DNA of 58,851 nt from an uncultured Alphaproteobacteria bacterium (GCA_949286245.1 CASECF010000060.1:1-58851); one strand, 5' to 3'; shown: positions 396 through 16,360, numbered from the stretch's first letter. A program made the numbers and translations. The notes: generated by a model not told the origin, from the letters alone.

Positions 396-1385
396 TCAAG
401 TGACTTCCGTAACGGCACGAATATTACCATCTCGATTAATTTGAACAACCCGTAATTTCTCTTTCATTTCTTTATATGTTTTTTCACGGTCCGTCGTGGG
501 ATAAGAATGTAAAATTCGACCAATAAACGCTTTGTAGGCGGCATCCGGATTTTCCGCATGAATAGTTGCAAAACAGTTATCATGACCCGAACCCATCAGC
601 TCCCAAATAGCCCCAGCATTGGACGTTGAAATTTCACCTCCGATAATAGCATCCGGTGTAAACCGAACAGCAAGGTCAATCACACGCTTATAATCAAATG
701 CATTCGTTAGTTCCGTACGAGGGAGAACAATATGGACACGATTCTTATGAGGAACGATCAACTCTCTCGTATCCTCAATCGTTAAAATTCTTTTATGTGA
801 ATCCAGCAGTTTAATCAAGTTATTTAAAAATGTTGTTTTTCCCGTTGCGGTAGCACCACTGACCAAAACGTGATCTCCCCGTTTAATCGATAAAAGCAAT
901 CGGTCAAAAGGATCATCCGGATCTTCCACCTGTTTTAATTTGTTGATCGGTCTCAATCGCTCTCCCTGATCAAATCCGAAATCTTTAAAGGAAATTGGTA
1001 AATCTTCCTTATAGACACGAATAGCCATAGCGATTCCACCTGTCAAATCATTATTATCATACATAACATTTCGACCAGCAATTCCCGAAAAACGGTGTCC
1101 TCCGGGGAGTGTTGCATAAACAACGGGAGTTCCTTGTTCCGGATCAAATGCATAATCATAGGTGTTAGCAATAATATAGAGGATATTATTGAGATATTCT
1201 CTGGTTAACTTAGGTTCTTCATAATAATGCCACGGATATGTATGGCGACCTCTCAAACGAAGCCAAATACCTCCCGGAGAATTAACAGCGACTTCTTCCA
1301 CATTGTCCTGATTATACCAGTATGATAAGGGGCGCAACGCCGACTCTAAAACTCGGTAAGTATCGGTTATAGACAACTCCCCCAT
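396..1385 (-). CDS. virB11: Type IV secretion traffic ATPase VirB11
   Basis: 329 aa. Walker A is VSGATATGKTTFLN, and the Asp/His boxes are ILTIEDTRE and GHDNCFATIHA. It lies 13 nt downstream of virB10 with an SD (gagaaagggtg). Confidence 0.9.
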   Translation of the reverse strand: MGELSITDTYRVLESALRPLSYWYNQDNVEEVAVNSPGGIWLRLRGRHTYPWHYYEEPKLTREYLNNILYIIANTYDYAFDPEQGTPVVYATLPGGHRFSGIAGRNVMYDNNDLTGGIAMAIRVYKEDLPISFKDFGFDQGERLRPINKLKQVEDPDDPFDRLLLSIKRGDHVLVSGATATGKTTFLNNLIKLLDSHKRILTIEDTRELIVPHKNRVHIVLPRTELTNAFDYKRVIDLAVRFTPDAIIGGEISTSNAGAIWELMGSGHDNCFATIHAENPDAAYKAFIGRILHSYPTTDREKTYKEMKEKLRVVQINRDGNIRAVTEVT

Positions 1386-1398
1386 ATTTCACCCTTTC

Positions 1399-4300
1399 TC
1401 AAAATAATCTGTTGGAAGAAGATCCTGCTTTAGGTAATACCGGTTTAGAAACACGATTCGTTAAATCCTCTTGTTTCTTCTGTCCATCATAAATAGAAGC
1501 AGCTTCTAAGTGTTCTTGTGCAGGATCAGAAGAATTAGAGGTTATTTGCTCTCCTTCCGGCATATCCGAGGTAGCGAACTCTTCTTCAGGATAGTAATAC
1601 GAATCATCCGGTTCATAATACTCTTCCTCGTACCCCATATCCGATCCTGAATCCAATGTTGTCGTACCGGCTGAATCATAGGATTGCAAATTTGGACTTC
1701 TTTTATCGACCCAAGATCCCGTAGTTGGCTTTTGAGCCGCAGAAGAATCCTTCCCATAGGTTTCCTCATAATCCGCCACATCGTCATCTTCCGATCTAAG
1801 CCACAAATCCTCATTAGAGAACACAGTCACTCTTGTGCCCGATGGAACGTACACAATAGGAGGAATATCCGTTGACTCATCAATTAATTGCTGGAAGATT
1901 TGATCCATCGCATTGATGAAGTTCTCGCGAGCATCACTGGCAGCCTCAGATTTAGAACTTGTTGTTTGCGTGCCATTTTCCGTTGTCGTCACATCATCGT
2001 TTACAGCCATCATGTAAGATATTGCAGATGTGACGGTTGAGGTTAAGACCGGTTTTCCATACTTTTTCATCAACTGTTCATCCAAGTACGCAGCCACGCC
2101 ACCTCGTCCTTGAGCATCTCCGGAAACGCCTTGGAAAATGAAGGCTCCGCCATCCGGTCGAACCAATCTCTCCCAAGTAATATCAAGTTTTGCAACATGA
2201 TTTTCACCTTGACCGGACTCAGCCTTTCCGATAATACGGCTTCCGGCCGGTATTAGGATGTTTCGACCTGATTCAGAATAAATATGTCGTTCAACAATCG
2301 CAGTCACAGGAACATCAACATATCGAGAATCGATAGAGCGAACAATAACAGCCGGAATAGCTTTATCCTTCATAATCATGCGTGACATATCCACCGGCCA
2401 CGAAGACACAATCCGAGGTAATCCCCAATTTGGATCTTGTTTTTTCTTAGATTTTGCCAACAACTTTCCATCCGGTTTAATAACTTTAGAAATCCCCTGA
2501 CGCATACTGGCTCGTTTTTGTGCCAATAACTGTTGCATTTGAGCCACTTGTTCCGGTGTCACTTCTGTTTTCTTGTCCAAATCCGGACGTGTTCGACCTT
2601 GCGAATCGGCACCCGTCAATAATCTGTTATCCATAGAATACGGACGGCCATCTTCTCCCATATATCCGATAACTGTTCCGGTTTCATCAATAATAGATCC
2701 GTTATTAATCGTAAAAGCCTTTTTTCCGATAAAGATTCGTCGTCCGGCGCTTCCCGAACCATCGGCACCCCCTAAACCTGTAGTTGTCTTGATTCCGCAC
2801 CGATCCAATCTCGGATTTGTTCCGCCGACACTTCCCATTTCAGAACCATCCGGAGCTAATAACTTGCCATCACCCAAAACCGTTCCGAAAACTTCTCCGT
2901 TCAAGTCAATGATAGATCCGTCGGCCATAATCGAAGCTATTTTTTCTCCATAGTTGTTCAAAACGTCACATCCGGAAATAATTCCTAAAACACGACCTTC
3001 CTTATCTCTTAAAACCGTAACCCCATCCAAAGATTTTCCGGACATATCAACGATTTGACCATCCTTCAAACGACCGATTACCTCTCCTGTCACCGGATCC
3101 ACAATATCTCCGTTCGGTAAAACACGAAAGACTGCATTTCCCTGAGGATCCGTAAAAGTACCGTCCAGTCCGAATGTTCCGGAAACCGTTCCGTCAGGAT
3201 GGAAGAAAATTTCCTGATCTTTCGGAATCATGCGTCCGATTACATTTCCTTCTGAATCAACAATCGTTCCCTTTCCATCACCCAAAACCTGACCGATTTT
3301 GGTATTGTTCTTATCAACAACATCACCGTTAAACTTGACACGGCCGATCGGTTTCCCGTCTTCACCAATCGCTAAACCTCGTTCAATCACATGGCCAACA
3401 ACCGCTCCCGTATTATCTACAACGGATCCGTCATTACGAGCACACCCCATATTAACGCCTCGTGTATCAACAACGGTTGAATCCGGTAGCGTACGGCCTA
3501 AAAATTCACCGGTCGGAGATAAAACGGCACCCTTACGCGTCACACGACCAATTCGTTCATTTCGCGTGTTAACAACCCATTTATCCGGTAAAACACGTCC
3601 GACGACCTCTCCTCGTCCGTTAATAACCTGACCGTTATGAGTCGTCTGTCCCACGATTTGACAGTTATTTGTCACAAGCGGATCCGGAACAATTGCTCCT
3701 AAAATTTCCAACTGATGAGATCCTTTAACCGCTCCGTTTACGGCAATTGTCCCTTTTGTTTCTTGAGTGGCAGACTGAATGGTACCATCTCCGGCCAAAA
3801 TACCCAAAACCGTTCCGTCATGAGAAACAGCCGTTCCAAAAGATACAACCGCTCCGGCCAACGGTAATTCTCCGCCTAAAATCGTTCCGTCATCCAAAAT
3901 ACGATAAACCTTCTTATCACTGGCATTAAGAATATCACCGGAAAGAGTTGTTCGTCCCAACACTTCATTATCATATCCAACGGGCAGACCTTGTTTTGTC
4001 AAATTACCGGCATAAGGCATCGTTGTAAAGAGCTCTCGATCACTGACACTCACAGCCACACCGTCTGTCATAATACGAGCAACAACGGCATTATCGCGTG
4101 AAATCAAAGCACCATCTGCCGTCACGACACCAATTTCAAGGGCATCATCATTCACGGCAACACCCATAGGTAAGGCACCTCCAGCCCATAAATTATCTAA
4201 TGTCAACGCAGACCCGAAAGGCATTTGTGTCGCCAATTTCTGATTATCTTTGTTTACAATATTACTCGTTCCCATGCTACGACCGATTAAAGCACCGTTT

Positions 4301-7300
4301 CTACCGATGAAAACACTCGGAGATAAAACAGATCCCGCCAATACGTTTTGGGTATTATAAATCACACCCGTTCCGGTCGACATCCCCTCTAATTTCTCAT
4401 TAAAGACGATTTCACCCGTTTTCATCACCCCGCCTAAAGAGACAAGTGTATTTGTCACCGGGAACCCGATCGGAGCCAATCCGCCCACAACTTCTTTTGT
4501 TAAATTAACAACCAACCCATTGGTCATTACAGACCCTAACGGCTTATTATCATTTGCAATAATGGCCTCTCCGTTTAAATTGCCGATTCCAATTAATTTT
4601 CCGGTTGTGTTATCATTAACAAACGGCAGTTCATCCGATAAACGACCAACCATACGTCCGTTTCGAGCGACGAAAAGAGGTGTGACGGCAGATCCTTGAA
4701 TTTGTCCGTTTAAGTCAACGATCGAACCATCACCGTTCACAAAACCAATACTCTTTTCCATATCGGCAAAAGCAACGGAATCCAACGGGATGTAAGAACC
4801 GACAATTGATCCATTCTGATTAAGAACATGACGATCTAAAGAAATACGACCGACAAAACCCTTATCATTCTCAACGGATCCATCAACACGAACCCATCCG
4901 ATAAACTGTCCGTTCTGATCAACGGCAACACCCGGTTTTAAAAGCTGTCCCATAATTTCTTGATTGGCATTATATACAAACTGAGAAGCCTTCAAAATAC
5001 CTTTATTGGAAGCATCCGGCCCAACAATGCGATTATCAGGAGAAATCGGTCCTAAAAATTGACCGGCAGAATCAACCGCAAATCCACGATTGACCAATGA
5101 TCCCAAAACAACCCCACTTTTATCCAACGCGATACCGCCGGCAACAATATGACCAATTGTGCGACCATCTCTTCCAACTAAATCACCGTCAAAAGAAGAC
5201 CATCCGATTAATTGATTTTGGGTATTTAAATAAGCTCCGACACGGACCAATTTACCGACAACATCACCCTCACTTCCAAGAACAAGTCCAAACGGCGAAA
5301 GCGCCCCTATTTGTCGCCCGTTTTTATCATTGACAGTCCCTTGGTAAGTCGGATATCCGATAACCCCCTCACCACTCATGGCAAGAGAAACATCCGGAAA
5401 AACACCCCCCAAAACTTTTCCATCATTGGAAACAGCTAATCCGTTAGCCAAAACACGACCAATCTTTGTTTTTGCCGGAGATAAGACCTCTCCAGTATCG
5501 GAAATAACACCGACTTCTTTTCCTAAAGAAGAGAAAACCCGACCAGTCGGAATACGCATTCCGATAGGCAAGCCTTCTTGATTCACAACAGATCCATCTG
5601 CACGAATTAACCCGACAACTTCTCCGGCAGACCCCTTGAGAGAACCATCAATTTGCATTGTTCCCAAGACATTGTTATTGAAATCCATAAATACCGTTTT
5701 ATCTGGAATCAACGCCCCGATGATAGCCGTTCTATCCGGATTTAAAGCCGTATAGTCCGGTAAAATAACAGCGATTTTTTCTCCGGTTTCATTAAAAGCG
5801 GCTCCGCTTGCTTTTGAATACCGACCCAGAATTCGTCCGTCAAATGAGAAAACGACTCCATCCGGAACAACAACCCCGAGAATTTTACCGGTTTCACCGA
5901 CAATCCAGCCATTGGGTTGAAGAGTTCCGACTAAAACTCCTTTTTCATCATAAATCTTATCACCGACAATACTCCATCCTTTGGGATTTCCATCCTCACC
6001 CAAAATAACACCTTTACTTTCTTCAGTTCCGACAAGCGTCCCAAGTAGTTTTCCATCTAAGGTCGTCACAGTTCCGTCCGGATTAACACATCCGATCACC
6101 TTTCCCTCTCGATCAATGACTTTTCCGTCCAAACGAACTCGACCAATGACTTTACCGTCTTTATCAACAACCAAACCTTTCGGAGCAATAGAACCAATTA
6201 CTTCCCGTTGTTCGTTCACAACTGTTCTGTCCGGAGTCACACATCCAACAACCGTTCCATTCAAATCAACAACACTTCCGTTAACAGTGATCAATCCCAA
6301 CAAACGACATCCTTCTGCTATTGCCGTTCCTCGTGGAATAACAACACCAACAACTTTATTGTTAAGGTTCATAACATATTTATCAGCCAAAACACGACCA
6401 ACAACCTCGGTCAAATCATTCATAACCGATCCATCCGGATAAACAGAACCGATAACTTGACACCCATAGCCAATCACACGTCCTTTTTCCATAACGGCAC
6501 CAACTTGTCTCTTCCCTGCAGAAACAGAACCATCCGGATTAAGGCAACCAATCATGGCTCCTTTTGCATCAACAGCTTTTCCTTCAGAATTTATAAAACC
6601 TAAAACAGTCCCTTTTTCATCAATAACAAGCCCCTGAGAGATAACAGATCCAATTTCCGTTTGCTCCGCATTCACAACCGATCCATCCAACAAAACGGTT
6701 CCGACAATTTGCTCATAAGAATCTTTTACCTGACCATTCAACAAAACAGTTCCAATTGACTGGCATCCGGATCCAACAGCAACACCTCTCGGGATCAAAC
6801 CACCAATCAACTCGCCGCTTGAATCAATCGCCAATCCTGTTGGTGTAATGGATCCAATTGTTTGTCCCGCTCCATTAACAATCGTTCCATCAGGAATAAT
6901 TCCCCCGATTACTTGTCCCGTAAAATTAGACACAAGTCCCCACGGCCTCAAAAAGCCCAGATGCTTTCCTTCCAAATCAACGACAGAATTGTCAACACGT
7001 GGTTTCCCGATAACAACATTTCCGGCATTCACAACCGTTCCGTCCGTTAATAACTTTCCGATAATTTTTCCCTGATCATCCATAACAGAAACAACGGGGA
7101 CCGCAGCACCCAAAACCTTTAAAGAAGAATCGACAATTGTGTCATCGCCCAACAATCGTCCCAACTTATCCCCATTAGCACTGATAATATCTTGCGTCTC
7201 AGAAATACTTCCCAAAACAGTGTTATCCATACCAAGCGGAATTCGTTTAGGCGTTGCAATTGCGACAATATTTCCGTTTTGATCCACAAAAAGACCATTT

Positions 7301-8007
7301 TCCGTTTCCGTTAACTTCGTCCCATCAGGGAGCGTAATCGTTCCATCCGTAATCTCATGAAGTTTTCCATCTAAGCCCATGGCATATCTCGGCTTCTTTT
7401 CTGCCTGAGCCCGAACATCTTCACAGATAACACAATCTTTCGAATCGGTCGACTGGGCTCGAATATTGACGGCAGTTCGTTCTTCTCTGAAAACGGAAGG
7501 AGAATCTTCTTTCCATCTGATATTCATGATATTTTGTATCTGTCTCAGTGAAACCGGATTCCACAATACTTTAATATTACAAGACGCATCCTTTGCAATC
7601 ACTGCATTCGGGGTACATGTTGTTTCTAACGTAAAGCCATCTTGTTGAACTTCCGCCAAATCCATCCCCAAGAAAAGAATAGGTGCGTTTTCGGCTGTTA
7701 ACGTCACAATTGCCTCTGCCTTTGAGCCGATTACAACATTATTCATATCAACGGTTGTTGGATCAATTTTTAAATTAGCACTACCACGTGGGAAAAGAGA
7801 GGCATCACCGGTTTGACCTAATTGACTGGCACTCAACTCATTATTATATTCAATTGTCGGGCGTTCCTGACGAGATTTTCTTCCCTCCGAGATAAACGCA
7901 AGAGCAATTAAAAAAACAAGCAACAGTCCCAGACCGATCAATAAAAGTCTGCGATTGCTTTTCTTGATATAAATGTCCGATGAACTTAATCCTCTATTTT
8001 CTTTCAT
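1399..8007 (-). CDS. virB10: Giant VirB10/TrbI-family T4SS core protein (2,202 aa)
   Basis: It has an N-terminal TM helix (LLLIGLGLLLVFLIALAFI, aa 21-39). The C-terminal TrbI/VirB10 domain spans aa ~1864-2071 (PRIVSSWPVDMSRMIMKDKAIPAVI...ILIPAGSRIIGK...RLVRPDGG...IVYVPSGTRVTVF). Between them lie ~1,600 aa of 17-residue repeats. Its position between virB9 and virB11 fits. Confidence 0.9.
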   Translation of the reverse strand: MKENRGLSSSDIYIKKSNRRLLLIGLGLLLVFLIALAFISEGRKSRQERPTIEYNNELSASQLGQTGDASLFPRGSANLKIDPTTVDMNNVVIGSKAEAIVTLTAENAPILFLGMDLAEVQQDGFTLETTCTPNAVIAKDASCNIKVLWNPVSLRQIQNIMNIRWKEDSPSVFREERTAVNIRAQSTDSKDCVICEDVRAQAEKKPRYAMGLDGKLHEITDGTITLPDGTKLTETENGLFVDQNGNIVAIATPKRIPLGMDNTVLGSISETQDIISANGDKLGRLLGDDTIVDSSLKVLGAAVPVVSVMDDQGKIIGKLLTDGTVVNAGNVVIGKPRVDNSVVDLEGKHLGFLRPWGLVSNFTGQVIGGIIPDGTIVNGAGQTIGSITPTGLAIDSSGELIGGLIPRGVAVGSGCQSIGTVLLNGQVKDSYEQIVGTVLLDGSVVNAEQTEIGSVISQGLVIDEKGTVLGFINSEGKAVDAKGAMIGCLNPDGSVSAGKRQVGAVMEKGRVIGYGCQVIGSVYPDGSVMNDLTEVVGRVLADKYVMNLNNKVVGVVIPRGTAIAEGCRLLGLITVNGSVVDLNGTVVGCVTPDRTVVNEQREVIGSIAPKGLVVDKDGKVIGRVRLDGKVIDREGKVIGCVNPDGTVTTLDGKLLGTLVGTEESKGVILGEDGNPKGWSIVGDKIYDEKGVLVGTLQPNGWIVGETGKILGVVVPDGVVFSFDGRILGRYSKASGAAFNETGEKIAVILPDYTALNPDRTAIIGALIPDKTVFMDFNNNVLGTMQIDGSLKGSAGEVVGLIRADGSVVNQEGLPIGMRIPTGRVFSSLGKEVGVISDTGEVLSPAKTKIGRVLANGLAVSNDGKVLGGVFPDVSLAMSGEGVIGYPTYQGTVNDKNGRQIGALSPFGLVLGSEGDVVGKLVRVGAYLNTQNQLIGWSSFDGDLVGRDGRTIGHIVAGGIALDKSGVVLGSLVNRGFAVDSAGQFLGPISPDNRIVGPDASNKGILKASQFVYNANQEIMGQLLKPGVAVDQNGQFIGWVRVDGSVENDKGFVGRISLDRHVLNQNGSIVGSYIPLDSVAFADMEKSIGFVNGDGSIVDLNGQIQGSAVTPLFVARNGRMVGRLSDELPFVNDNTTGKLIGIGNLNGEAIIANDNKPLGSVMTNGLVVNLTKEVVGGLAPIGFPVTNTLVSLGGVMKTGEIVFNEKLEGMSTGTGVIYNTQNVLAGSVLSPSVFIGRNGALIGRSMGTSNIVNKDNQKLATQMPFGSALTLDNLWAGGALPMGVAVNDDALEIGVVTADGALISRDNAVVARIMTDGVAVSVSDRELFTTMPYAGNLTKQGLPVGYDNEVLGRTTLSGDILNASDKKVYRILDDGTILGGELPLAGAVVSFGTAVSHDGTVLGILAGDGTIQSATQETKGTIAVNGAVKGSHQLEILGAIVPDPLVTNNCQIVGQTTHNGQVINGRGEVVGRVLPDKWVVNTRNERIGRVTRKGAVLSPTGEFLGRTLPDSTVVDTRGVNMGCARNDGSVVDNTGAVVGHVIERGLAIGEDGKPIGRVKFNGDVVDKNNTKIGQVLGDGKGTIVDSEGNVIGRMIPKDQEIFFHPDGTVSGTFGLDGTFTDPQGNAVFRVLPNGDIVDPVTGEVIGRLKDGQIVDMSGKSLDGVTVLRDKEGRVLGIISGCDVLNNYGEKIASIMADGSIIDLNGEVFGTVLGDGKLLAPDGSEMGSVGGTNPRLDRCGIKTTTGLGGADGSGSAGRRIFIGKKAFTINNGSIIDETGTVIGYMGEDGRPYSMDNRLLTGADSQGRTRPDLDKKTEVTPEQVAQMQQLLAQKRASMRQGISKVIKPDGKLLAKSKKKQDPNWGLPRIVSSWPVDMSRMIMKDKAIPAVIVRSIDSRYVDVPVTAIVERHIYSESGRNILIPAGSRIIGKAESGQGENHVAKLDITWERLVRPDGGAFIFQGVSGDAQGRGGVAAYLDEQLMKKYGKPVLTSTVTSAISYMMAVNDDVTTTENGTQTTSSKSEAASDARENFINAMDQIFQQLIDESTDIPPIVYVPSGTRVTVFSNEDLWLRSEDDDVADYEETYGKDSSAAQKPTTGSWVDKRSPNLQSYDSAGTTTLDSGSDMGYEEEYYEPDDSYYYPEEEFATSDMPEGEQITSNSSDPAQEHLEAASIYDGQKKQEDLTNRVSKPVLPKAGSSSNRLF
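2611..7380 (-). repeat. About 90 tandem, diverged 51-nt (17-aa) coding repeats inside virB10
   Basis: The period is visible by eye: GSIAPKGLVVDKDGKVI / GRVRLDGKVIDREGKVI / GCVNPDGTVTTLDGKLL / GLIRADGSVVNQEGLPI / GMRIPTGRVFSSLGKEV and so on. The consensus is G-x-[ILV]-x-P-D-G-x-[VA]-[VI]-[ND]-x-x-G-x-[VI]-[ILV]. Confidence 0.85.
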
Positions 8008-8035: not shown

Positions 8036-9844
8036 TTATTGAACCCGTACAACTGAACATGTAAAACCACGGCGTCCCAACTTTTGACACAAAGTATCAG
8101 CCGTTTTTACATTTTTCATCGGGCCTATCCGCAACCGGAATAATTCACGCACATCCCCGTCAGCCGTCGCATCAACGGAATAATATGGTTCATATCCCTT
8201 TAACAAATCTTGGTTTTTAGAATAGATGTTATCCCAAATTGTCTCGAGTTCTGCCATACTGGCATGCGTTCCCAATTCAACGGAAATTGTCTCTTTATCA
8301 CTGATAAACGTTTTAACATCAGAAGAAACCGAACTCGAAGAAGATTTTGAAGTCGTAATTTGGTTCATCACACCGACAATCCCGGAAGAAGCCGACGGAG
8401 AATTCTTAACCTCTGTCGGAATTCCCTGCATGGGAGCCATCTCCTGTGTATAAACAAATGACGGATACGAATTAACAAACTCAGCATTAATTCCGGCAGC
8501 TCCACCCGACATCATGTCCGGCATAATCATCTGTCCGTCCATTGTCATGGGGAATTGAGCTTTAAACGTTCCATCCGCATTCATTCCCTCGGTGTAGGCA
8601 CTCGTAGACTGAGAAGATAAAAGAGAAGATTGAGACGTAGCAGAGGATCCCGCCACCATTGAAGAAGCAGACCCACCCATTACATCAGAAGCTCCATTCA
8701 TCCCATTTGAATCCGCATTATTTTGAGTCGACGGTTTTCCACTCCATGAAGCCGATTGCCCCTGAGACCCACTATAATCAATATACTCTAATCCGGAAGC
8801 CGGATCACGTCTGAGCTTCAGACAAATAATTTTTTTACCATTTCTCAAGACCAAATCCCCGATAGCTTCCACAACAATTAAACGACTATTAGGGCCTCTT
8901 GTTCTAAAGCCGACAGGAACCTCCGTATCCTGAACAATCAAGTTAACAATCGGACGCTGTGTCATCGTCAATGCTTTCGGCCCCATATCGATATATGTAA
9001 AGATATTATCACGCCATACATTCTCCGGAGCCATATCAACATCTGCCGGATTTGGCAAGTACATATCGATATCGAATCGGAAACTCTCCGGATCTACAGG
9101 TATGGATTTTAGCCAATCTTTCGGTCCTGTTGAAGCCGTATTTAAGCCGATTTGAGGATTCTGGGAGCCACGACCAGCCCATCCCGGGGCAGCCGATCCA
9201 CTTACTGATGTATTGGAAGAGGCCGTGATCGTGGCACCATTAAAATTTCCAAGTTTTCCTCCGTTTTCAACCGGTGTATATTTTGGACCGACCAAAACAT
9301 CGACAACCGATTGCGTAATTTTATCCGTATTATATGTTTCGCTTCTCAGATAAAATACATATCGATTCCCAGACCGACCAAAAACAATCATATTGCTGTC
9401 CACACCGATATAAGAAGGATCCGCATAAACAAGGAGAGAATTCGGAGCAGCAATTTCACCACCGAAAGATTCGGGAGAACCAATATGAACCTTTTCAATC
9501 AACTCCCAGGTTGGGAAGTTAATAAGTGTCATCATCCCCTCTCGTAAACGAATGGGCAAAACAACATCAGGAGACCATAAATATTTCGAATACCCCGGTT
9601 TGGTCTGTCCTTCTCCTAAATGCGACAAAGGATCATTCCAAGCTTTTTGTTGCATTCCCAAAGAATGAATGTAATTCAAATTCACCTGATCAAACTCTCC
9701 GGTTGTTTGAGCTATGGCATCACTGAGCTGACCCGCCTCCACATCGGCCGGCAACATTTGTTGAGCTTGTGCCGCAACACTTAATAAAATAACTAAGCTT
9801 GTCGCTCCCAACCAATTTAATTTACGAAATTTTCCTTTTAACAT
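8036..9844 (-). CDS. virB9: VirB9/TrbG/CagX-family T4SS outer-membrane core protein with a long C-terminal extension ending in a SPOR domain
   Basis: 602 aa. The signal peptide ends ..SVAAQAQ. The VirB9 N-domain reads LPIRLREGMMTLINFP...IVFGRSGNRYVFYL. The C-domain reads FRFDIDMY..VWRDNIFTYIDMG..RLIVVEAIGDLVLRNGKKIICLK. A Ser-rich linker follows, then ISVELGTHASMAELE...FRLRIGPMKNVKTADTLCQKLGRRGFTCSVVRV, which is SPOR-like. Confidence 0.85.
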   Translation of the reverse strand: MLKGKFRKLNWLGATSLVILLSVAAQAQQMLPADVEAGQLSDAIAQTTGEFDQVNLNYIHSLGMQQKAWNDPLSHLGEGQTKPGYSKYLWSPDVVLPIRLREGMMTLINFPTWELIEKVHIGSPESFGGEIAAPNSLLVYADPSYIGVDSNMIVFGRSGNRYVFYLRSETYNTDKITQSVVDVLVGPKYTPVENGGKLGNFNGATITASSNTSVSGSAAPGWAGRGSQNPQIGLNTASTGPKDWLKSIPVDPESFRFDIDMYLPNPADVDMAPENVWRDNIFTYIDMGPKALTMTQRPIVNLIVQDTEVPVGFRTRGPNSRLIVVEAIGDLVLRNGKKIICLKLRRDPASGLEYIDYSGSQGQSASWSGKPSTQNNADSNGMNGASDVMGGSASSMVAGSSATSQSSLLSSQSTSAYTEGMNADGTFKAQFPMTMDGQMIMPDMMSGGAAGINAEFVNSYPSFVYTQEMAPMQGIPTEVKNSPSASSGIVGVMNQITTSKSSSSSVSSDVKTFISDKETISVELGTHASMAELETIWDNIYSKNQDLLKGYEPYYSVDATADGDVRELFRLRIGPMKNVKTADTLCQKLGRRGFTCSVVRVQ

Positions 9845-9956: not shown

Positions 9957-10664
9957 CTAAGACGGCAAGGCCTGAATTCCAAACTTCAAGACAGTAAATC
10001 CAAGTGGATTTTTCAAGCGCTGATCCCATGTTAGTCCTGGTCTTGTCGGGCGGAAGGCCACCTGCATAACAACCAACCATTTTGACTTTGTTGGCTGACT
10101 ATCCCCCTGTTTCATATCCGTCAATTCTATTTCGGCACGCCACACATTAACGCCCTCTCCTTCAGAACGATACGGAGAAACAACCAAAATTTTAACATTT
10201 CGTGTTAATCCCTCTTTACGCGCCTGTTCCAAAAGGAGATTCGCTGTACGAGCAAACTCCTGAAAGACAGAAGACTCACTCATCCAGTTTACGCTTCCGT
10301 CAATCCCCCACCGACGTTCCAATTCCGGGATATTGGTCCCAACTGTTAATCGAGACAACAAATACTGTCTGATAAAAGACTCTGTCAACAGATTCATATC
10401 CAACTCAGCATAATTGGGTCTTTGAATACTAATGATTTGTTGATCTTTATCCATTGTACTCAAATAAAAGGGTTGGACCCGAACAATCGGGAGAAGAGAA
10501 AATAACGCACTTAACAGGATAAGAGTTGCCAAAAATGAAACGACACAAACCAGTGCAAACGTTCGAGCCATCCAAAGATATCGCCGTTCTTTAACAGCTT
10601 CTTCGGAGATATCGCTCTCCATACCGTTCATTTCCTCTTCTGAATGAGTCGCATCAACAGTCAT
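9957..10664 (-). CDS. virB8: T4SS inner-membrane protein VirB8 (copy proximal to virB9)
   Basis: 235 aa. It is bitopic, with a TM helix (FALVCVVSFLATLILLSALFSLL) followed by an NTF2-like periplasmic domain ending ..RLKNPLGFTVLKFG. Confidence 0.85.
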   Translation of the reverse strand: MTVDATHSEEEMNGMESDISEEAVKERRYLWMARTFALVCVVSFLATLILLSALFSLLPIVRVQPFYLSTMDKDQQIISIQRPNYAELDMNLLTESFIRQYLLSRLTVGTNIPELERRWGIDGSVNWMSESSVFQEFARTANLLLEQARKEGLTRNVKILVVSPYRSEGEGVNVWRAEIELTDMKQGDSQPTKSKWLVVMQVAFRPTRPGLTWDQRLKNPLGFTVLKFGIQALPS

Positions 10665-10685
10665 TCTTTTAAATTCCCATATTGA

Positions 10686-10862
10686 TTAAGAAATCCAAGA
10701 AGCTGTTTTAGGAGCTCTTTTTAATTCCAAACAGGCGCACGGAGATTTCTTCAGCTCAGAATAATCCGGACCAATACCAACCGTTTCTTTTTCATAAATG
10801 GAACCACAGGCCACCAGGGCCAAAACAGCCAAGACACTCAATAAGAACAAATGTTTTTTCAT
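10686..10862 (-). CDS. Small lipoprotein, VirB7-like by size, lipobox and position; not in the ORF track (58 aa)
   Basis: ATG at 10860-10862 is preceded by aaaggaaacctt (SD). Translation: MKKHLFLLSVLAVLALVACGSIYEKETVGIGPDYSELKKSPCACLELKRAPKTASWIS, stop at 10686-10688. The lipobox is L-V-A-C. It sits between the two virB8 genes. Confidence 0.6.
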   Translation of the reverse strand: MKKHLFLLSVLAVLALVACGSIYEKETVGIGPDYSELKKSPCACLELKRAPKTASWIS

Positions 10863-10883
10863 AAGGTTTCCTTTCTTAAGATG

Positions 10884-10898
10884 TTAACCTAATGTTAA
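10884..10898 (-). promoter_or_regulatory. Perfect CtrA-box consensus TTAA-N7-TTAA in the virB8/virB7 intergenic gap
   Basis: The sequence is ttaa cctaatg ttaa. A third TTAA lies at 10876-10879. The site is 22-36 nt upstream of the virB7-like ATG. Confidence 0.35.
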
Positions 10899-10942
10899 CA
10901 TATAGCACATTATTTTTATTTATCCAATAAAAAAATGAACTC

Positions 10943-11584
10943 TTATTGTTTTTTCTTTGACTCGTTATATTTTACGACGGTTAACCCGTATGGATTCGCA
11001 AAATTAGTTCTAAAAACACGTCTAGAGGGATCATGTACGACTTCAATGATAGACACTTTACTTTCCCGTGAAATCGTACTTCCGAGGAGACGGACTACAT
11101 CAAACTCGACCGTAAACGTATTTCCCAATCGACTGATTCGTTGAATATCAACACTTTCCGTATAAGAGAGATTCCGAAGTTGAGTCACCTCCTCGCCGAA
11201 ACCAGCTAAAAATTGTCGATAAACATCCGCATTCGAAAGCAACCACACAGGTCCACCGACACCTATACGGCGATTAAATTCCGTTTGATCAGCAAATAAC
11301 GATAATCTCATTTCCAAATAATATCGGATCAGCATTTCATCCAACAATTTTTTATCACCGATATCGGAAGATAAAGGCTCTGCCTGAATCAATTGATTAG
11401 AGCTCATCGGAGAAGTCAATATTTGAGAAATAACCTTTAAGCGAGGAGCCATTTGAAGTAATGTCAAAATAATCAATAAATTAAATGCAATAATAATTGC
11501 CGCAACAATCATCCAAAACTTTGCCAAAAACTCGGCATTTCCTCTTTTTCCCAAAACACGTCGAGATAATTCTTCTTTGCTCAT
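10943..11584 (-). CDS. virB8: T4SS protein VirB8, second paralogue
   Basis: It has a TM helix (FWMIVAAIIIAFNLLIILTLL) and a VirB8-type C-terminus (..NFANPYGLTVVKYN). The likely start is MSKEELS at 11584, which forms an ATGA overlap with the stop of the upstream gene. The track ORF extends to 11611. Confidence 0.8.
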   Translation of the reverse strand: MSKEELSRRVLGKRGNAEFLAKFWMIVAAIIIAFNLLIILTLLQMAPRLKVISQILTSPMSSNQLIQAEPLSSDIGDKKLLDEMLIRYYLEMRLSLFADQTEFNRRIGVGGPVWLLSNADVYRQFLAGFGEEVTQLRNLSYTESVDIQRISRLGNTFTVEFDVVRLLGSTISRESKVSIIEVVHDPSRRVFRTNFANPYGLTVVKYNESKKKQ

Positions 11585-13212
11585 TGAATATATGTTCCTC
11601 CATTTAAGCACATATCATCCAATTTTTTTCTTTGGGTTTTATTGATTCTTTTATTAAATAACTCTATCTCCTTTTTTAAGGCTTCCGTTGCGGCTGCCTC
11701 TTTCATCAATTGATCAATTTGACCCGCATTTTGGCGAGATAAAGTGACATGTCCGTCCGAATCCGTTTTAAGAGCCTCAATCAACTGACGAGCCTGATAT
11801 ACACGCGAAGATTGTATCGCATCAGCCGTTTTTACATAAAGCGAACGGTCTTTTGTTAATTGATCCAAAACATCTTCCTGACCTTGCGGTGAAATAGATA
11901 AAACACTTTCTGCGGATAATGTTTTTTGCTCATCCTCCGAAGAAGAACTTGGAAGCTTACTCATCTCTTCCTCTGCCTGTTTTAAATATATCTCTTTCTG
12001 CTCACGAATAGCTTTTTTAACCTGATTATACTGTGTTTCATCCAGCAAATTCGGTGTTTCCATAGCCAACCCATGTGAAGCGAGTCTGGAATCCAACACA
12101 CTCATCAAATTATTTTCTTCTGCCTGAGTGATTTCGACCAACTTTTGAGCCGTACTTCTTTCTTTTTTTATTCCCTGATAAACATTCAATCGATTATCTT
12201 GAAGAGAGGCATCCTGATTACGAACACTCTCCTTAAGGCGCAATGATTTTCCGATAAAATCTTGAGCCATTTCTCCTGTCGGATTAAAATCTTCAAAATT
12301 ACTCTTCATAAACTTCTGCCACGGTTCCGGCCATTCCGGAAAGACTTGTCTTGTTTCTTCCGGATCACCGATATATTTCACAATTTCATCGGCTGGCGGA
12401 AGAGGTTTGGGGGGTACCGGTGGCATTTTAAAGGATGCCGGCATTCCCATCAATTTTTTGGGGGCTTGGGCACTCATTTTTTTCAGGTAATCGGCATGCG
12501 CTTTAATCAATTCATCATACTGTGTATAGTCGTACTTCTGATCACCAATCTGGGGGAGTACATCCGAAGAAACGCCAAAATAAGTATTTATTTGGGCATA
12601 AAAATCATTATACTCTTTATCATAAAGATACTTTTGATCTTTCCAAAGCGGAAAAACCGACGATTTTCCGGCTCCCCCCTTTGGAGTTCCCCATTTTTCG
12701 GGATTGGCATACACATCCGTTAAAATATTTTTTCCCAGTGTCCATGTGGCATTTTGTTCAATAATTGTTTGATCATCCGGTGTCACGTTCGGCAACTGAT
12801 CTGGATCATACCGTTGTGCCGAATTCAAGAAAACAGCCAGTTGTTTTTCCTGAGCATCGTAAGTCTTTGTCATTTTTTCCCAAACATCCTCTGGATTTTG
12901 GAAATACTTTCCGAGTCGTCGAATATTGCAAGTTGTCATATCATCGAATCGTTTATTCTGATAATCTAATTGTTCTTTTGCATCCGCTTGCGTCTGTTGA
13001 AATTGACGAAAAGAAGGAAGAGACACCATTAAATTATGTAAATCCAAGGCTTTCAATAACGGAATTTGATAATTACTTTGCGTCTCCGCTTGAGTTTGAG
13101 TTGCCGGAATTCGTTCTACTTTAACAAACGGAGATTCAGCCAAGGCAACCGATGACAACAAAAGCGATGAAACCGTAAGCATAAAAAAAGATCTGTATTC
13201 CATGAACATCAT
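11581..13212 (-). CDS. Secreted protein of unknown function, T4SS-linked (543 aa)
   Basis: The signal peptide is ..LLLSSVALA|ESP. It has a central PPVPPKPLPP motif and a coiled-coil-like, Glu/Gln/Lys-rich C-terminal half. It is translationally coupled to virB8. Confidence 0.6.
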   Translation of the reverse strand: MMFMEYRSFFMLTVSSLLLSSVALAESPFVKVERIPATQTQAETQSNYQIPLLKALDLHNLMVSLPSFRQFQQTQADAKEQLDYQNKRFDDMTTCNIRRLGKYFQNPEDVWEKMTKTYDAQEKQLAVFLNSAQRYDPDQLPNVTPDDQTIIEQNATWTLGKNILTDVYANPEKWGTPKGGAGKSSVFPLWKDQKYLYDKEYNDFYAQINTYFGVSSDVLPQIGDQKYDYTQYDELIKAHADYLKKMSAQAPKKLMGMPASFKMPPVPPKPLPPADEIVKYIGDPEETRQVFPEWPEPWQKFMKSNFEDFNPTGEMAQDFIGKSLRLKESVRNQDASLQDNRLNVYQGIKKERSTAQKLVEITQAEENNLMSVLDSRLASHGLAMETPNLLDETQYNQVKKAIREQKEIYLKQAEEEMSKLPSSSSEDEQKTLSAESVLSISPQGQEDVLDQLTKDRSLYVKTADAIQSSRVYQARQLIEALKTDSDGHVTLSRQNAGQIDQLMKEAAATEALKKEIELFNKRINKTQRKKLDDMCLNGGTYIQ

Positions 13213-13214
13213 CC

Positions 13215-14288
13215 TTATTCAAATGTTTCTGTCAATGTTTTAATGTTTCTGATTGAAGGAATCGAAGCCAGTTGTTGATCCGCTTGCAACTCTAAACTAA
13301 ACGCCCAAATTTGTTGCAACAACATTGTCAACTGATATTCGACCAAACGTACTGCTATATTTTCCTTAATGGCCGTCACTTTATCTGTTCCTTGCAATTG
13401 TGTAGAATCCAAGATAACTCCCTCATACTTGTTAGGCGTACTGACAGACAGAGTATCTTCCAGTTCTTCCACCATTTTAGCTAATTTCTCAAGTTGATCT
13501 TTTAGAACCAAGACACGTGCCATATTTTTAATAACAGCTTGTTGCTCTTCATACATTCGCATTTGACGGGCATATGTTTCATTTTTCAGACCACCCTTTC
13601 CTTCTCTCTCAATTAAATTTTGAGCATTCTCCGACATATTTTTATCGACGGTATCTGCGGTGCTATTAATACCTTGATCAGAAACAGATCCAACAATATT
13701 CCCTGCTGTTTGAGAAGCCTGAACACCCGCTTGTGATGTTGTTCCCGTTGTTGTTCCAGTGGTTGTTGATATCCCGCCGGTCGTTCCGACATTTCCGGAT
13801 GTTGAGGAGGATCCACTTGTTGATCCGGAATTAGCAGATGTTGAAGAACCCGTTCCACCGCTCGATGTAGCTTGTTGTTGATCCTCTCTCCAATATTTAT
13901 TTACAAAAGCCTCTCCCTGACTTTCAATGACGTCACGCATATTCTCCGTTCCCTGATCAACATAATTGGAAATAGAGGAGGTTACGACCGATCCATCCGG
14001 TAAAAAAGGAATATCCGGCAATTTTGATTTAACATCCTGAACACTCGGCAACATGTTAATCATATCCTTTTGGGTCCCCTCAAGAACAGATTGGATGTCC
14101 GTCAATTTTTCCGTAGCCTGCAATTGATATTGTTTAACATAATCTTGAGCCTGCTTGGAAATATCCGAAATCGGTGTTCCACTTCCAGCCTCTAAAATAC
14201 ATTTGAGTGTGGTACAAACAGCCTCACCTCTCAGAGGGAACAAGAGAAGTAAGAATGCCGGTAATATAAAATACGTTTTTTTTATCAT
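13215..14288 (-). CDS. Secreted protein, member of a T4SS-linked paralogue set (357 aa)
   Basis: A signal peptide (..FPLRGEA) is followed by a helical N-segment, an S/G/T-rich core (aa ~140-196, TSSGGTGSSTSANSGSTSGSSSTSGNVGTTGGISTTTGTTTGTT) and a helical C-terminal module. Confidence 0.6.
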   Translation of the reverse strand: MIKKTYFILPAFLLLLFPLRGEAVCTTLKCILEAGSGTPISDISKQAQDYVKQYQLQATEKLTDIQSVLEGTQKDMINMLPSVQDVKSKLPDIPFLPDGSVVTSSISNYVDQGTENMRDVIESQGEAFVNKYWREDQQQATSSGGTGSSTSANSGSTSGSSSTSGNVGTTGGISTTTGTTTGTTSQAGVQASQTAGNIVGSVSDQGINSTADTVDKNMSENAQNLIEREGKGGLKNETYARQMRMYEEQQAVIKNMARVLVLKDQLEKLAKMVEELEDTLSVSTPNKYEGVILDSTQLQGTDKVTAIKENIAVRLVEYQLTMLLQQIWAFSLELQADQQLASIPSIRNIKTLTETFE

Positions 14289-14300
14289 AAAACCCCTCCT

Positions 14301-15596
14301 TTACTTCGGTTCTTCCGGTTTTGCCATCAATTCAAGAGGCTGTGCCAAAAGCATTTGTGTCGTTAAAACTTCCGCATTGGCAATTCCGATTCCGATCAAT
14401 GCAACCGTTTGCTTAATTCGAGCCAAAGAAGCCTTTGTATTAATTTGGATATCCTCAATCTGGTTACAGCCGTTTGTCGGCGCTCCCGTAATTGATTCGC
14501 TATCTGTCTTTAATTTCGACCGAATCCCCGTACTTAAGGATAAAACTTTTGTTGCCACTTCATTTAAATATTGAGATCGCTTCCAAGACATTGCATTTAA
14601 TTTATCAGAAGTTGGATTTTTTTCTGTTAAAAAGAACTCTTTTTGAGCAAAACTTCTCGCTGTTTGAAAATCTTTTTGAGGCGGAGCAAATTTTGATTCA
14701 TCCGCTTTTTTCAATATTTCTTCCTCGACATAATCATATGCATTACTCTCGACTGCCGTATAATTTTTTGTCTGGCCATCCGATGAGATGGGAGTGCTTC
14801 CTTGGATTGTGCCGCACCCACCGTCTCCGGCCAGAGCCTCATTCTGTTTTAACACCTCTTCATCTGTCTGAAGTTGAGCTTCCTTATTGCTTTCTGTTTG
14901 AACTTGCTGTGCCTCAGTCTTTACCGTACCTTCACTATCTGTTGTCGGAATACCCGTTGAGACAGCAGAAAACTCCATCGGTCCCATTTCTTCCAAAACC
15001 GCTGAAAAGTCTTTATAAACATCAGAAATCGGAACCGCTTCTTCTATACTATCCATAACGCCGGAAGGATCCAAACCATCCAACGAACCGGAAATAGTAT
15101 CCGTCACACCCCCTACAACACCCCCAATCGTATTTGAAACGGAGCCCGTCACACTGCCAACAGCACCACTAACACCCCCTACAACACCCCCGATCGTATT
15201 TGAAACGGAGCCCGTCACACTGCCAACAGCGCCACTAACGCCCCCTACAACACCCCCGATCGTATTTGAAACGGAGCCCGTCACACTATCAACAGCACCA
15301 CTAACGCCCCCTACAACACCCCCGATCGTATTTGAAACGGAACCCGTCACACTATCAACAGCTCCACTAACAACTTTATCCGCAACACCGGAAACATTTC
15401 CAACGACTCCGCTAACACTGTCCACAGTACTTCCCACCTGTTGAACGGTATCTTGAACTGTTCCTAATGTATCCGATCCCGGTAAAAATAAATCAAACGG
15501 TTTATCCTCTATAGGAGTGATAGCAGCAAGGGATCCTCCTGATAAAACTGAAAAGGATACAACCGATACCGCCAAAAAAAGAAGATGTTTTTTCAT
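14301..15596 (-). CDS. Secreted tandem-repeat protein, member of the T4SS-linked set (431 aa)
   Basis: A signal peptide (..SGGSLA|A) is followed by four copies of a 22-aa repeat, VSGAV[DG]SVTGSVSNTIGGVVGG. An acidic region and a helical C-terminal module follow. Confidence 0.6.
   Translation of the reverse strand: MKKHLLFLAVSVVSFSVLSGGSLAAITPIEDKPFDLFLPGSDTLGTVQDTVQQVGSTVDSVSGVVGNVSGVADKVVSGAVDSVTGSVSNTIGGVVGGVSGAVDSVTGSVSNTIGGVVGGVSGAVGSVTGSVSNTIGGVVGGVSGAVGSVTGSVSNTIGGVVGGVTDTISGSLDGLDPSGVMDSIEEAVPISDVYKDFSAVLEEMGPMEFSAVSTGIPTTDSEGTVKTEAQQVQTESNKEAQLQTDEEVLKQNEALAGDGGCGTIQGSTPISSDGQTKNYTAVESNAYDYVEEEILKKADESKFAPPQKDFQTARSFAQKEFFLTEKNPTSDKLNAMSWKRSQYLNEVATKVLSLSTGIRSKLKTDSESITGAPTNGCNQIEDIQINTKASLARIKQTVALIGIGIANAEVLTTQMLLAQPLELMAKPEEPK
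15109..15372 (-). repeat. 4 x 66-bp near-identical tandem repeat (in frame, coding)
   Basis: Units start at 15109, 15175, 15241 and 15307. They differ at only a few positions (for example ctgcc versus ctatc). Confidence 0.9.
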
Positions 15597-15613
15597 ATTC
15601 TATCCCTTCCTTT

Positions 15614-16351
15614 CTAAAATAATCCCTTCTGATCTGTTGAAGCAGATGTTTTCTCACTATCTACACGAGCTCCCTGAAGCGCCTTCAGTGCATCAATTCG
15701 AGCTCTTTCCGAAGCTAACACATTCAATTCCGTCATCTTTCCGGCCATTTGTATGGTTAAAACACCTAATCCTTTATACAAATCAATAATTGATTCTCTT
15801 TTTTCCAAATCTTCTTTTAATTTCTTAAAATCCTCGGTTGTTTTTTCAGAGTTTTGTTGCGAAATCGTAGCAACAGCTTTTGCATGCAATAAGTTCAGCA
15901 CATAATATTTTTGCTGATACGCCAACTCTCCTGGTTTATCTTGATCCTTGTTAGACTGTCCCTCAACTCTCTCTGTTGTGGCTATCATCGTCTTGGGATC
16001 AAAATAAATCAATTCTCTCAATTTTTCTTCTACTTTAACAACATCGGGATCCTTTTCCTCCAGCAAGCTTTTTAATTCTTTTGGAACAATCGGCAAAATT
16101 TCTTCGTTCACAAGGATACTTGCTTGCTCTTCTACCGTTTCACTTTTTTGAACCCCAGGCATCCCGATATTTTGTAATTTCTGTCGCGCATCTTCCACCG
16201 CTTGGAGATCTGACAATGTCGTATTAACCGTTGCCGAGATTTGTTCAATCGATTGCGCAACCCCTGGAATATCGAATGTCGAATTAGCCCACCCCAACAT
16301 GGGTAAAATGAGAAGCCCCCCAACAATTAATATATTTTGTCCTAACTTCAT
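15614..16351 (-). CDS. Secreted helical protein, possibly VirB5/TrbJ-like (245 aa)
   Basis: The signal peptide is ..PMLGWA|N. The size and all-helical, Gln/Glu/Lys-rich composition resemble VirB5/TrbJ. The N-terminal FDIPGVAQSIEQISATVNTTLSDLQ recalls the VirB5/TrbJ N-motif. The assignment is tentative. Confidence 0.45.
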   Translation of the reverse strand: MKLGQNILIVGGLLILPMLGWANSTFDIPGVAQSIEQISATVNTTLSDLQAVEDARQKLQNIGMPGVQKSETVEEQASILVNEEILPIVPKELKSLLEEKDPDVVKVEEKLRELIYFDPKTMIATTERVEGQSNKDQDKPGELAYQQKYYVLNLLHAKAVATISQQNSEKTTEDFKKLKEDLEKRESIIDLYKGLGVLTIQMAGKMTELNVLASERARIDALKALQGARVDSEKTSASTDQKGLF

Positions 16352-16360
16352 TTTAACCTC

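Follow-up and report, generated by a model that had tools for sequence, protein, structure and literature searches.

How can a protein of the VirB10 family reach 2,202 amino acids (aa), and what fills the space between its two ends? The question is raised by a 58,851-nucleotide stretch of DNA from an uncultured Alphaproteobacteria bacterium (GCA_949286245.1 CASECF010000060.1:1-58851; this whole stretch is called the window below), in which an earlier note had recognised a VirB10 with about 90 tandem 17-residue units in the position of its periplasmic linker. VirB10 is anchored in the inner membrane, places its C-terminal domain at the outer membrane and forms 13- to 14-fold oligomers in the solved core complexes of type IV secretion systems (T4SS). 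We found that the usual Pro-rich periplasmic linker is replaced in this protein by an ASH/PapD-like Ig domain and about 88 hairpins of the beta-flower type, and we propose, at a probability of roughly 55%, that the hairpin array is a rigid, length-calibrated periplasmic strut or collar.

The gene is a single, stop-free open reading frame (ORF) at 1399..8007 on the minus strand, encoding 2,202 aa, which confirmed the 6.6-kb frame without a stop described in the earlier note; the repeat region that the note delimited at 2611-7380 corresponds to aa 210-1799 of the giant VirB10. Structures were predicted with AlphaFold2 (AF2) from 34 diverse orthologues, as a monomer and in two models (aa 40-1150 and aa 1101-2202), with confidence expressed as the predicted local distance difference test (pLDDT) and the predicted TM-score (pTM). 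Counts of Cys residues refer to 121 aligned sequences. The gene and its parts are as follows.

1399..8007, minus strand: giant virB10, complete, 2,202 aa; a single ORF, with the same protein on 3 contigs and 120 orthologue clusters
7891..8007, minus strand: cytoplasmic N-terminal tail (aa 1-20) and single transmembrane helix (aa 21-39), from the sequence and the orthologue consensus
7786..7890, minus strand: short juxtamembrane linker (aa 40-74), probably disordered (AF2 pLDDT <50, model residues 1-35)
7447..7776, minus strand: ASH/PapD-like Ig-type beta-sandwich domain (aa ~78-187), from AF2 (pLDDT 81-92) and Foldseek
7423..7434, minus strand: CxxC motif (aa 192-195, in 'DSKDCVICE'), both Cys present in 121/121 aligned sequences
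2623..7362, minus strand: hairpin array (aa 216-~1795) with 86-90 beta-flower-type units, each of 17 aa, from the parse, Pfam and AF2
6088..6765, minus strand: Cys pairs 415/488, 516/589 and 567/640, each 73 aa apart, from covariation among the 121 rows
3442..3663, minus strand: Cys pair 1449/1522, 73 aa apart with the same geometry, in 121/121 rows
2494..2556, minus strand: conserved helix (aa 1818-1838) at the junction of array and barrel, from AF2 (DSSP helix H718-738, model 2)
1798..2376, minus strand: TrbI/VirB10 C-terminal barrel domain (aa 1878-2070), from Pfam PF03743 and Foldseek
1402..1794, minus strand: acidic C-terminal tail (aa 2072-2202), predicted disordered (AF2 pLDDT <50)

The C-terminal domain identifies the protein as a VirB10. 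PF03743 (TrbI) matched aa 1878-2070 with an E-value of 3.1e-34 and 118.9 bits against a cut-off of 35, covering profile positions 2-188 of 188, and Foldseek aligned the predicted domain with probability 1.0 to ComB10 (2bhv), TrwE (7o3j), Xanthomonas VirB10 (6gyb), CagY (6odi) and TraF (3jqo), at TMt values of 0.5-0.59. The TrbI/VirB10 match that the earlier note expected at the C terminus was thus found both by sequence (Pfam E 3e-34) and by fold. Two NCBIfam equivalogs also matched, below their strict cut-offs (T4SS_VirB10 with 106 bits versus 220, and ComB10 with 105 versus 300). The predicted barrel domain carries a two-helix antenna (aa 1969-2001 and aa 2018-2046), and its pLDDT is only moderate because the AF2 model is a monomer. 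At the opposite end, the transmembrane helix is intact, as the note had it: a basic KKSNRR, read from the sequence, precedes the hydrophobic aa 21-39 (LLLIGLGLLLVFLIALAFI), the helix is kept in the orthologue consensus, and matches in the representative library align from residue 1.

No Pro-rich flexible periplasmic linker is present between the helix and the barrel; the region consists of the ASH-like domain and the hairpin array, and its sole enrichment in Pro comes from position 5, where 32% of units have a single Pro. In Foldseek the ASH/PapD-like domain resembled the ASH domain of CEP192 (6fvi, TMt 0.63) and the PapD-like domain of HYDIN (2e6j, TMt 0.70), both with probability 1.0, and NCBIfam choice-of-anchor D gave a weak match at aa 78-152. 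Its Cys131 and Cys143 are conserved in 120 of the 121 aligned rows. Between this domain and the array, the CxxC motif sits in the strongly conserved KAQSTDSKDCVICE; neither the domain nor the motif had been mentioned in the earlier note. On the far side of the array, the junction helix has the orthologue consensus PEQxxxMxxLLxxRR. The C-terminal tail is rich in Tyr, Glu and Asp and measures 40-163 aa among orthologues, with a conserved LF end that becomes PELF in a more distant clade. Judged from these domains and from the gene order described below, the protein is a genuine, functional VirB10 of a chromosomal rvh-like P-type T4SS.

We analysed the periodicity of the array by BLOSUM autocorrelation on aa 210-1800 and parsed its units with a position-specific scoring matrix and dynamic programming. 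The autocorrelation was positive at lags 17, 34 and 51 only, and the identity at lag 17 reached 0.193 against 0.079 ± 0.006 in shuffled sequence (z = 17.7). The parse yielded 86 units over aa 216-1724, followed by 2-3 degenerate units up to about aa 1795, in agreement with the motif, count and coordinates of the earlier note; a HMMER profile of the 17-aa unit under-called the array, with 48 matches versus these 86. The note had further described the array as strict and uninterrupted. The period holds but the wording goes slightly too far, since 69 of 85 spacings are exactly 17 aa (the longest run of exact spacings being 16), 16 small phase shifts occur, and three stretches, near aa 656-700, 1105-1140 and 1590-1675, are irregular. 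A weak super-period of three units (51 aa) was also seen, with units 3, 6 and 9 apart scoring a mean BLOSUM of 12.0-12.9 versus 6.7-10.8 at other offsets (2836..7362), a pattern suggestive of growth through duplicated blocks of three units.

The units follow the consensus G-x-[VIL]-x-P-D-G-x-[VIA]-[VLI]-[DN]-x-x-G-x-V-[ILV]. According to DSSP on the AF2 models, a 5-residue strand (positions 16, 17, 1, 2 and 3) leads through an xPDG turn into a 3-residue strand (positions 8-10), and a [DN]xxGx loop completes the unit. Profile searches indicate that this is an already classified repeat and not a new one: PF21785 (5-fold beta-flower) matched ten stretches of the array with an E-value of 2.4e-79 and 262.9 bits against a cut-off of 38, and PF21784 (4-fold beta-flower; 71.2 bits versus 25) and PF12396 (DUF3659; 30.5 versus 24.8) passed their cut-offs as well. 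The beta-flower fold was defined from AlphaFold DB models, with a semi-conserved [DNEQ]xxG at the tip of each hairpin (PMC10584680). That tip motif is present in the array: D or N occupies position 11 in 59% of units and G occupies position 14 in 56%, and DSSP puts both positions in the inter-strand loop. We know of no solved structure of any beta-flower, and a sequence search of the PDB returned no sequence resembling the array.

Relatives with the same expansion, which the earlier note had proposed to look for, are numerous. A search with the full-length protein returned at least 120 orthologue clusters of 2,063-2,609 aa, which cover 100% of the query at 35-59% identity. Beta-flower repeats and TrbI occur together in each of these 120; the repeat region is thus fused to the VirB10 domain in 120/120 orthologues and is not the separate gene that the note had considered. 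Among GTDB species representatives, 218 genomes carry a relative, and the best 80 of the 218 matches span nearly all of aa 1101-2202. In the GTDB species genomes an intact single ORF of 2,085-2,667 aa, running from the N-terminal domain to virB11, was found in at least 67 loci. When aa 1-215 were compared with 1.8 billion representative proteins, about 50 clusters matched at E ≤1e-10, most of them aligned from residue 1; the longest measured about 1,930-2,400 aa, most of the shorter ones were fragment-like, and a few of 1,000-1,500 aa were left aside. Public names of the orthologues are generic ('TrbI/VirB10 family protein', 'DUF3659 domain-containing protein' or 'hypothetical').

That the expansion might be unique to this protein was suggested by relatives of 240-720 aa retrieved with a C-terminal 413-aa query, and was ruled out by the full-length search and by locus L085. 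The short relatives are C-terminal fragments or mis-called pieces that start within the repeats and lack the transmembrane helix, and the one at L085 is the tail of a ~2,540-aa gene that a frameshift, located in a 162-bp DNA tandem repeat (L085 9329..9865), has cut in two. In two further loci, L080 (a RUG Rhodospirillales metagenome-assembled genome, MAG) and L084 (a roe-deer reticulum MAG), the distance from the VirB10 N terminus to virB11 is about 10.5 kb, or about 3,500 codons, and the followed frame ends after about 1,396 aa; either the VirB10 is even larger there and carries a frameshift, or a gene has been inserted.

The carriers are all MAGs of gut Alphaproteobacteria; their records are almost all titled 'MAG: Alphaproteobacteria bacterium' and come from ruminant rumen and hindgut, human gut (Hadza and Nepali cohorts included) and rabbit. 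They include 'Acetobacter sp. CAG:977', an 'Azospirillum sp.' MAG and a RUG 'Rhodospirillales' MAG. We take the CAG genomes among the carriers, and the lineage, to belong probably to GTDB order RF32. Rfam and tRNA scans of the window gave nothing that bears on the placement of the organism.

Is such an array real, or the product of repeats that mislead assemblers? An assembly that collapsed or expanded repeats, or a decaying gene, could be suspected all the more as the gene at L085 is broken inside a DNA tandem repeat. At the DNA level, however, the giant virB10 of the window contains no tandem array (Tandem Repeats Finder, minimum score 30), which leaves no repeat to collapse, and its units share a mean DNA identity of 39%. 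Three independent contigs of a Logan assembly each code for exactly this protein, and an intact ORF of similar length is found in at least 67 species. With position-specific conservation and covarying Cys pairs in addition, we give an artefact or pseudogene practically no credence, and the earlier note's view of an old, selected array, as opposed to a recent amplification or an assembly collapse, was borne out; none of the outcomes that the note had named as fatal to its claim was seen.

Further comparison of the orthologues bore on the age of the array. Units at the same position in different orthologues are on average 47% identical (range 20-77%), versus 21% between different units of one protein, and the alignments thus indicate that the units are ancient and position-specific. 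Array length ranges from 1,550 to 2,001 aa among orthologues (median 1,593 aa) and falls within 1,550-1,608 aa in about 60% of them; on this alignment evidence, it is conserved across more than 100 species. Insertions and deletions of at least 8 aa cluster near aa 221-238, 646-663, 884 and 1632-1751 and tend to comprise whole units, roughly 2, 3 or 4 of them.

These data also bear on the idea that the array is an exposed, variable module like that of CagY, acting as an adhesin, a recombination rheostat or an antigenic-variation device. The repeat region of CagY recombines in frame and tunes T4SS function (PMC5954226, PMC2194252), the carriers found here are host-associated, and the 162-bp DNA tandem repeat inside the gene of the distant L085 lineage is recent. 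Against it, the gene in the window lacks any DNA repeat and its units have diverged to 39% DNA identity, the units and the length of the array are conserved across species, and the position of the array between an inner-membrane transmembrane helix and an outer-membrane barrel gives it a periplasmic topology. We consider an exposed module of this kind improbable.

How, then, are the hairpins packed? AF2 predicted aa 40-1150 with a mean pLDDT of 86.9 and a pTM of 0.79, and aa 1101-2202 with a mean pLDDT of 76.7 and a pTM of 0.60, the array part exceeding 90; along the array as a whole, pLDDT was about 85-95. These models show the array, at high confidence, as a single rigid body. Further information comes from its ten Cys residues, eight of which form four pairs exactly 73 aa apart; in every pair, position 14 of unit k holds the first Cys and position 2 of unit k+5 holds the second. 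Their distribution among the 121 rows was as follows.

Cys415/Cys488: both present in 110 rows, neither in 11, one alone in 0
Cys516/Cys589: both present in 107 rows, neither in 13, one alone in 1
Cys567/Cys640: both present in 121 rows, neither in 0, one alone in 0
Cys1449/Cys1522: both present in 121 rows, neither in 0, one alone in 0

Cys residues of separate pairs (415 and 516, for example) vary independently, and the chance that ten randomly placed Cys would yield four pairs of the same spacing is about 2e-5. This co-occurrence is strong evidence for disulfides that join hairpin k to hairpin k+5, and it implies that a turn comprises five hairpins, which fits the match to the 5-fold beta-flower, and that the array lies in an oxidising compartment, the periplasm. 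We also scored covariation by unit offset, using mutual information (MI) with average product correction at an effective number of sequences of about 84. The pooled signal was mostly noise and recovered contacts within hairpins and between adjacent units as well as the Cys pair 415/488. High-MI pairs were also seen at unit offsets 10-11 (units 67-81, aa ~1368-1626, ~3130..3905), namely D1373, T1375 and L1377 with R1556, and 1435 with 1611; phylogenetic noise, lineage-specific co-substitution and an additional contact are all conceivable reasons.

Contacts between units k and k+5 would also be expected if closed flowers were stacked coaxially, and the matched Pfam families describe closed 4- or 5-fold barrels of about 100 aa (PMC10584680). 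The array could accordingly be a string of about 17-18 separate five-petal barrels, joined end to end, which would be no rigid strut but a tether that bends or stretches, or else a platform for multivalent binding. Peptidoglycan is a candidate ligand, cell-wall contact being plausible given the peptidoglycan-binding SPOR domain of the neighbouring VirB9, and lipid is another, as in Tubby-like relatives of the beta-flower clan (CL0395). However, a pTM of 0.79 over 1,111 residues is unlike that of flexible beads, and disulfides between units k and k+5 would lock successive layers together. Up to 16 consecutive spacings are exactly 17 aa, there is no linker after every fifth unit, no five-unit super-period was found in any unit feature or in unit-to-unit similarity, and the insertions in orthologues comprise 2, 3 or 4 units and not blocks of five. 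Separate beads are possible, in our judgement, but unlikely; the missing five-unit period and the high pTM favour a continuous helicoid or a fused coaxial stack.

A different geometry was suggested by Foldseek searches of the PDB and BFVD, which gave no global structural analogue of the array and only local likeness to Rhs/YD shells. Such a hairpin strip would spiral into a hollow cocoon or cage around a cargo or the stalk. Local 3Di similarity to the Rhs cores 8qja, 8h8b and 8cp6 reached E-values of 1e-8 to 1e-7 (probability 0.63-0.95), with weaker likeness to teneurin and TcB/TcC (E 5e-6 to 1e-3, probability 0.08-0.28), and some orthologues carry precomputed PF05593 RHS-repeat matches. The query itself, however, had no PF05593 match in the Pfam scan, and the TM-scores of at most 0.1 and the root-mean-square deviations of 30-38 Å over about 1,000 columns mean that the global shapes differ. 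The strands of the array, with 3 and 5 residues, are far shorter than YD strands, and the k/k+5 disulfide contacts imply a tight turn of ten strands without a lumen. A hollow shell is therefore very improbable.

We thus favour the rigid strut, and its placement follows from the position of the array between the inner-membrane anchor and the outer-membrane domain together with the conserved disulfide pairs, which point to the periplasm. In this proposal, the hairpins would wind five per turn into a solid, disulfide-stapled rod, either as an open-ended beta-flower helicoid or as about 17-18 layers of five petals stacked on a common axis. The loop at the top of each layer would touch the lower end of strand A in the next, suggesting a rise of about 1.3-1.6 nm per turn; over about 17-18 turns this gives a rod of roughly 20-30 nm, about one periplasm. 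The width of the Gram-negative periplasm is close to that estimate. The rod would be about 2-3 nm thick and wholly periplasmic. The earlier note had expected the array, if each unit formed a hairpin or a solenoid rung, to be longer than a periplasm is wide, and thus to form a cage, a sheath or an extracellular extension. This expectation is not supported, as winding at five per turn would give a rough 20-30 nm and both the topology and the conserved Cys pairs point to the periplasm.

Given the 13- to 14-fold symmetry of VirB10, the rods would form a rigid palisade or collar around the central stalk, spanning the distance from the inner-membrane anchor to the outer-membrane core complex. They would fix the spacing and register of both membrane complexes and take the role proposed for the collar formed by the repeat-rich middles of DotG and CagY, while the energy of the inner-membrane ATPases would still be coupled to the outer-membrane gate, as in VirB10.

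Several points weigh against the strut. The shape, thickness and length of the rod derive from secondary structure, Cys spacing and generic beta-sheet geometry, and the AF2 model is a monomer built on only 34 sequences. A cluster of covariation at offset 11, between units 67 and 78, is not explained by a simple rod with five hairpins per turn. The window contains no VirB4, VirD4, VirB6 or VirB2 gene, so that the machine is incomplete in view. Finally, the lineage has a fused LptF/G-LptD protein (see below), which might imply a narrow periplasm, in which case a rod of 20-30 nm would have to tilt or coil.

A bolder form of the proposal can be offered only tentatively, and we regard it as doubtful. 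The array might represent a fibrous architecture not seen before, an open-ended 'beta-flower helicoid' with five hairpins per turn and inter-turn disulfides that would act as a rigid spacer of calibrated length, 13-14 copies of which would form a palisade that hard-wires the distance between the membranes of the T4SS. Together with LptF/G-LptD, this would suggest a lineage whose envelope is generally 'hard-wired', several of its trans-envelope machines being single rigid polypeptides.

The neighbouring genes support the assignment to a T4SS operon and are listed here.

396..1385, minus strand: virB11 ATPase, directly downstream of virB10 (TIGR02788, E 1.6e-40; Pfam T2SSE); it adjoins virB10 in 84/85 loci
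8036..9844, minus strand: virB9/CagX homologue, 602 aa (PF03524 CagX, E 1.8e-12; PF05036 SPOR at aa 550-600)
9957..11611, minus strand: virB8, virB7-like lipoprotein and virB8, with PF04335 VirB8 matching twice; the order of rvh 'islet C'
10686..10862, minus strand: virB7-like lipoprotein ORF, 58 aa, with an LVAC lipobox and a KKSPC motif

The operon order virB8, 58-aa lipoprotein, virB8, virB9, virB10 and virB11 recurs in about 71-77 of 85 loci, and the 58-aa virB7-like ORF is conserved in 71 loci with a median identity of 64%. Rickettsia VirB7 and ComB7 share a [KI]KSP-Cys signature, and Rickettsia islet C shows this gene order (PMC2653234). The KKSPC signature and the islet C order therefore point to an rvh-like P-type T4SS. 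The virD4 gene is not adjacent to virB11 here, nor in loci L002 and L003. The window is chromosomal, the operon being flanked by housekeeping genes such as folD, surA, an xerC/D-type recombinase gene, aroK, ligA, recN, bamD and pckG. In the VirB9/CagX homologue, a low-complexity, Ser-rich linker spans about 200 aa and the C terminus carries a peptidoglycan-binding SPOR domain; this suggests that the outer-membrane core complex is tethered to the cell wall.

Six consecutive genes lie upstream of the operon (11581..18246, minus strand) and encode proteins of 543, 357, 431, 245, 312 and 316 aa with apparent signal peptides and Ser/Gly/Thr-rich or coiled-coil regions but without a Pfam family. The 543-aa protein adjoins virB8 in 57 loci and the 431-aa protein in 27; the latter has a tandem repeat of its own, of about 20 aa (SGAVDSVTGSVSNTIGGVVGGV). 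These six could be T4SS parts, for example VirB9b-, pilus- or surface-type components.

Elsewhere in the window, a single ORF of 1,083 aa (20330..23581, minus strand) joins an inner-membrane LptF/LptG permease domain (aa 6-355) to an LptD_N domain (aa 406-479) and the barrel of LptD (aa 653-1019), which belongs to the outer membrane. More than 120 clusters of the same lineage have this fusion, with 1,007-1,096 aa (nearly all 1,062-1,096 aa) and 46-62% identity, and NCBI names them either LptF or LptD. A trans-envelope lipopolysaccharide bridge made of one polypeptide would be unusual.

The giant VirB10 matters because the way in which the VirB10 family bridges two membranes, and the build of the repeat-rich middles of CagY and DotG, are open questions in T4SS structure. 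The middle regions of CagY and DotG are not resolved in cryo-electron microscopy and are poorly predicted. The middle of the giant VirB10 is long, conserved residue by residue, confidently predicted and marked in its packing by putative disulfides, and may thus offer a tractable model of a periplasmic 'collar'; the family is also a natural test of whether array length sets envelope spacing. The beta-flower repeat, so far known from AlphaFold models only, gains its first concrete cellular context, and a conserved, unusual secretion machine is flagged in widespread uncultured gut bacteria of humans and livestock. If true, a rigid hairpin rod in place of a floppy linker would be an undescribed build of the periplasmic part of a T4SS.

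Compared with described beta-flowers, the array has the same [DNEQ]xxG tip, matches PF21785 far above threshold, and finds support for a five-fold arrangement in its k/k+5 Cys contacts. The beta-flowers described so far (PMC10584680), in contrast, have 4-6 petals closed into one shallow barrel of about 100 aa and 8, 10 or 12 strands, which in many cases surrounds a C-terminal helix or comes with a lipoprotein signal; here, about 88 petals follow each other without a break in a core subunit of a T4SS. The Rhs/YD shells of T6SS Rhs effectors, TcB/TcC and teneurins likewise arrange long runs of short hairpins in one continuous spiralling antiparallel sheet, with which the array shares local Foldseek similarity. 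Their units are longer and enclose a wide hollow cocoon, while the array appears tightly wound, with five hairpins per turn, and does not superpose globally.

At the level of the operon, the likeness is to the rvh system of Rickettsiales. RvhB10 has the usual length of a VirB10 and is not known to carry a hairpin array. The genes follow one plan in both: two copies of virB8 flank a small virB7 with the [KI]KSP-Cys motif, and virB9, virB10 and virB11 come next, all within a chromosomal islet (PMC2653234). In Rickettsia, islet C is closed by virD4, a gene missing from the giant virB10 locus. Other parts of the genome hold virB3, virB4 and multiple virB6 genes in rvh systems.

Two VirB10 homologues are enlarged in a similar way. 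CagY of the Helicobacter pylori Cag T4SS (~1,900 aa) is likewise oversized several-fold by a repeat region between the membrane anchor and the C-terminal domain, and its C-terminal domain (6odi) superposes on that of the giant VirB10 with probability 1.0 and TMt 0.58. Its repeats, however, are direct repeats at the DNA level that undergo in-frame recombination and vary in number as an infection proceeds (PMC5954226, PMC2194252), and the array has no DNA repeat; its modules are unrelated to the 17-aa hairpins in motif and predicted fold, and the operon here is rvh-like and not cag-like. DotG/IcmE of the type IVB Dot/Icm system is also a VirB10 homologue with a repeat-rich middle, and its dome domain (9ngw, 7muq) structurally matches the C-terminal domain of the giant VirB10. 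DotG repeats are 10-aa units, called pentapeptide-like, that vary in number within species and have low AlphaFold confidence, whereas the array has 17-aa units, a near-constant number and a pLDDT of about 90; no period of 5 or 10 was found in the array, and no Pentapeptide family in the Pfam scan. The earlier note was right that this repeat differs from that of DotG, but DotG is not the only comparable case, CagY being the classic repeat-inflated VirB10 (PMC5954226). The repeat regions of both have been proposed to form a 13-fold collar from the periplasmic ring to the inner membrane (bioRxiv 10.1101/2023.03.22.533729). We found no publication describing giant hairpin-array VirB10 proteins, which, as literature coverage is incomplete, is absence of evidence only. 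Since the giant VirB10 family differs from CagY and DotG in repeat type, position-specific conservation, constant length and predicted rigidity, and no paper on it was found, we count the hairpin array as a novel periplasmic module on VirB10, in a probably open-ended form that would be new for the beta-flower repeat.

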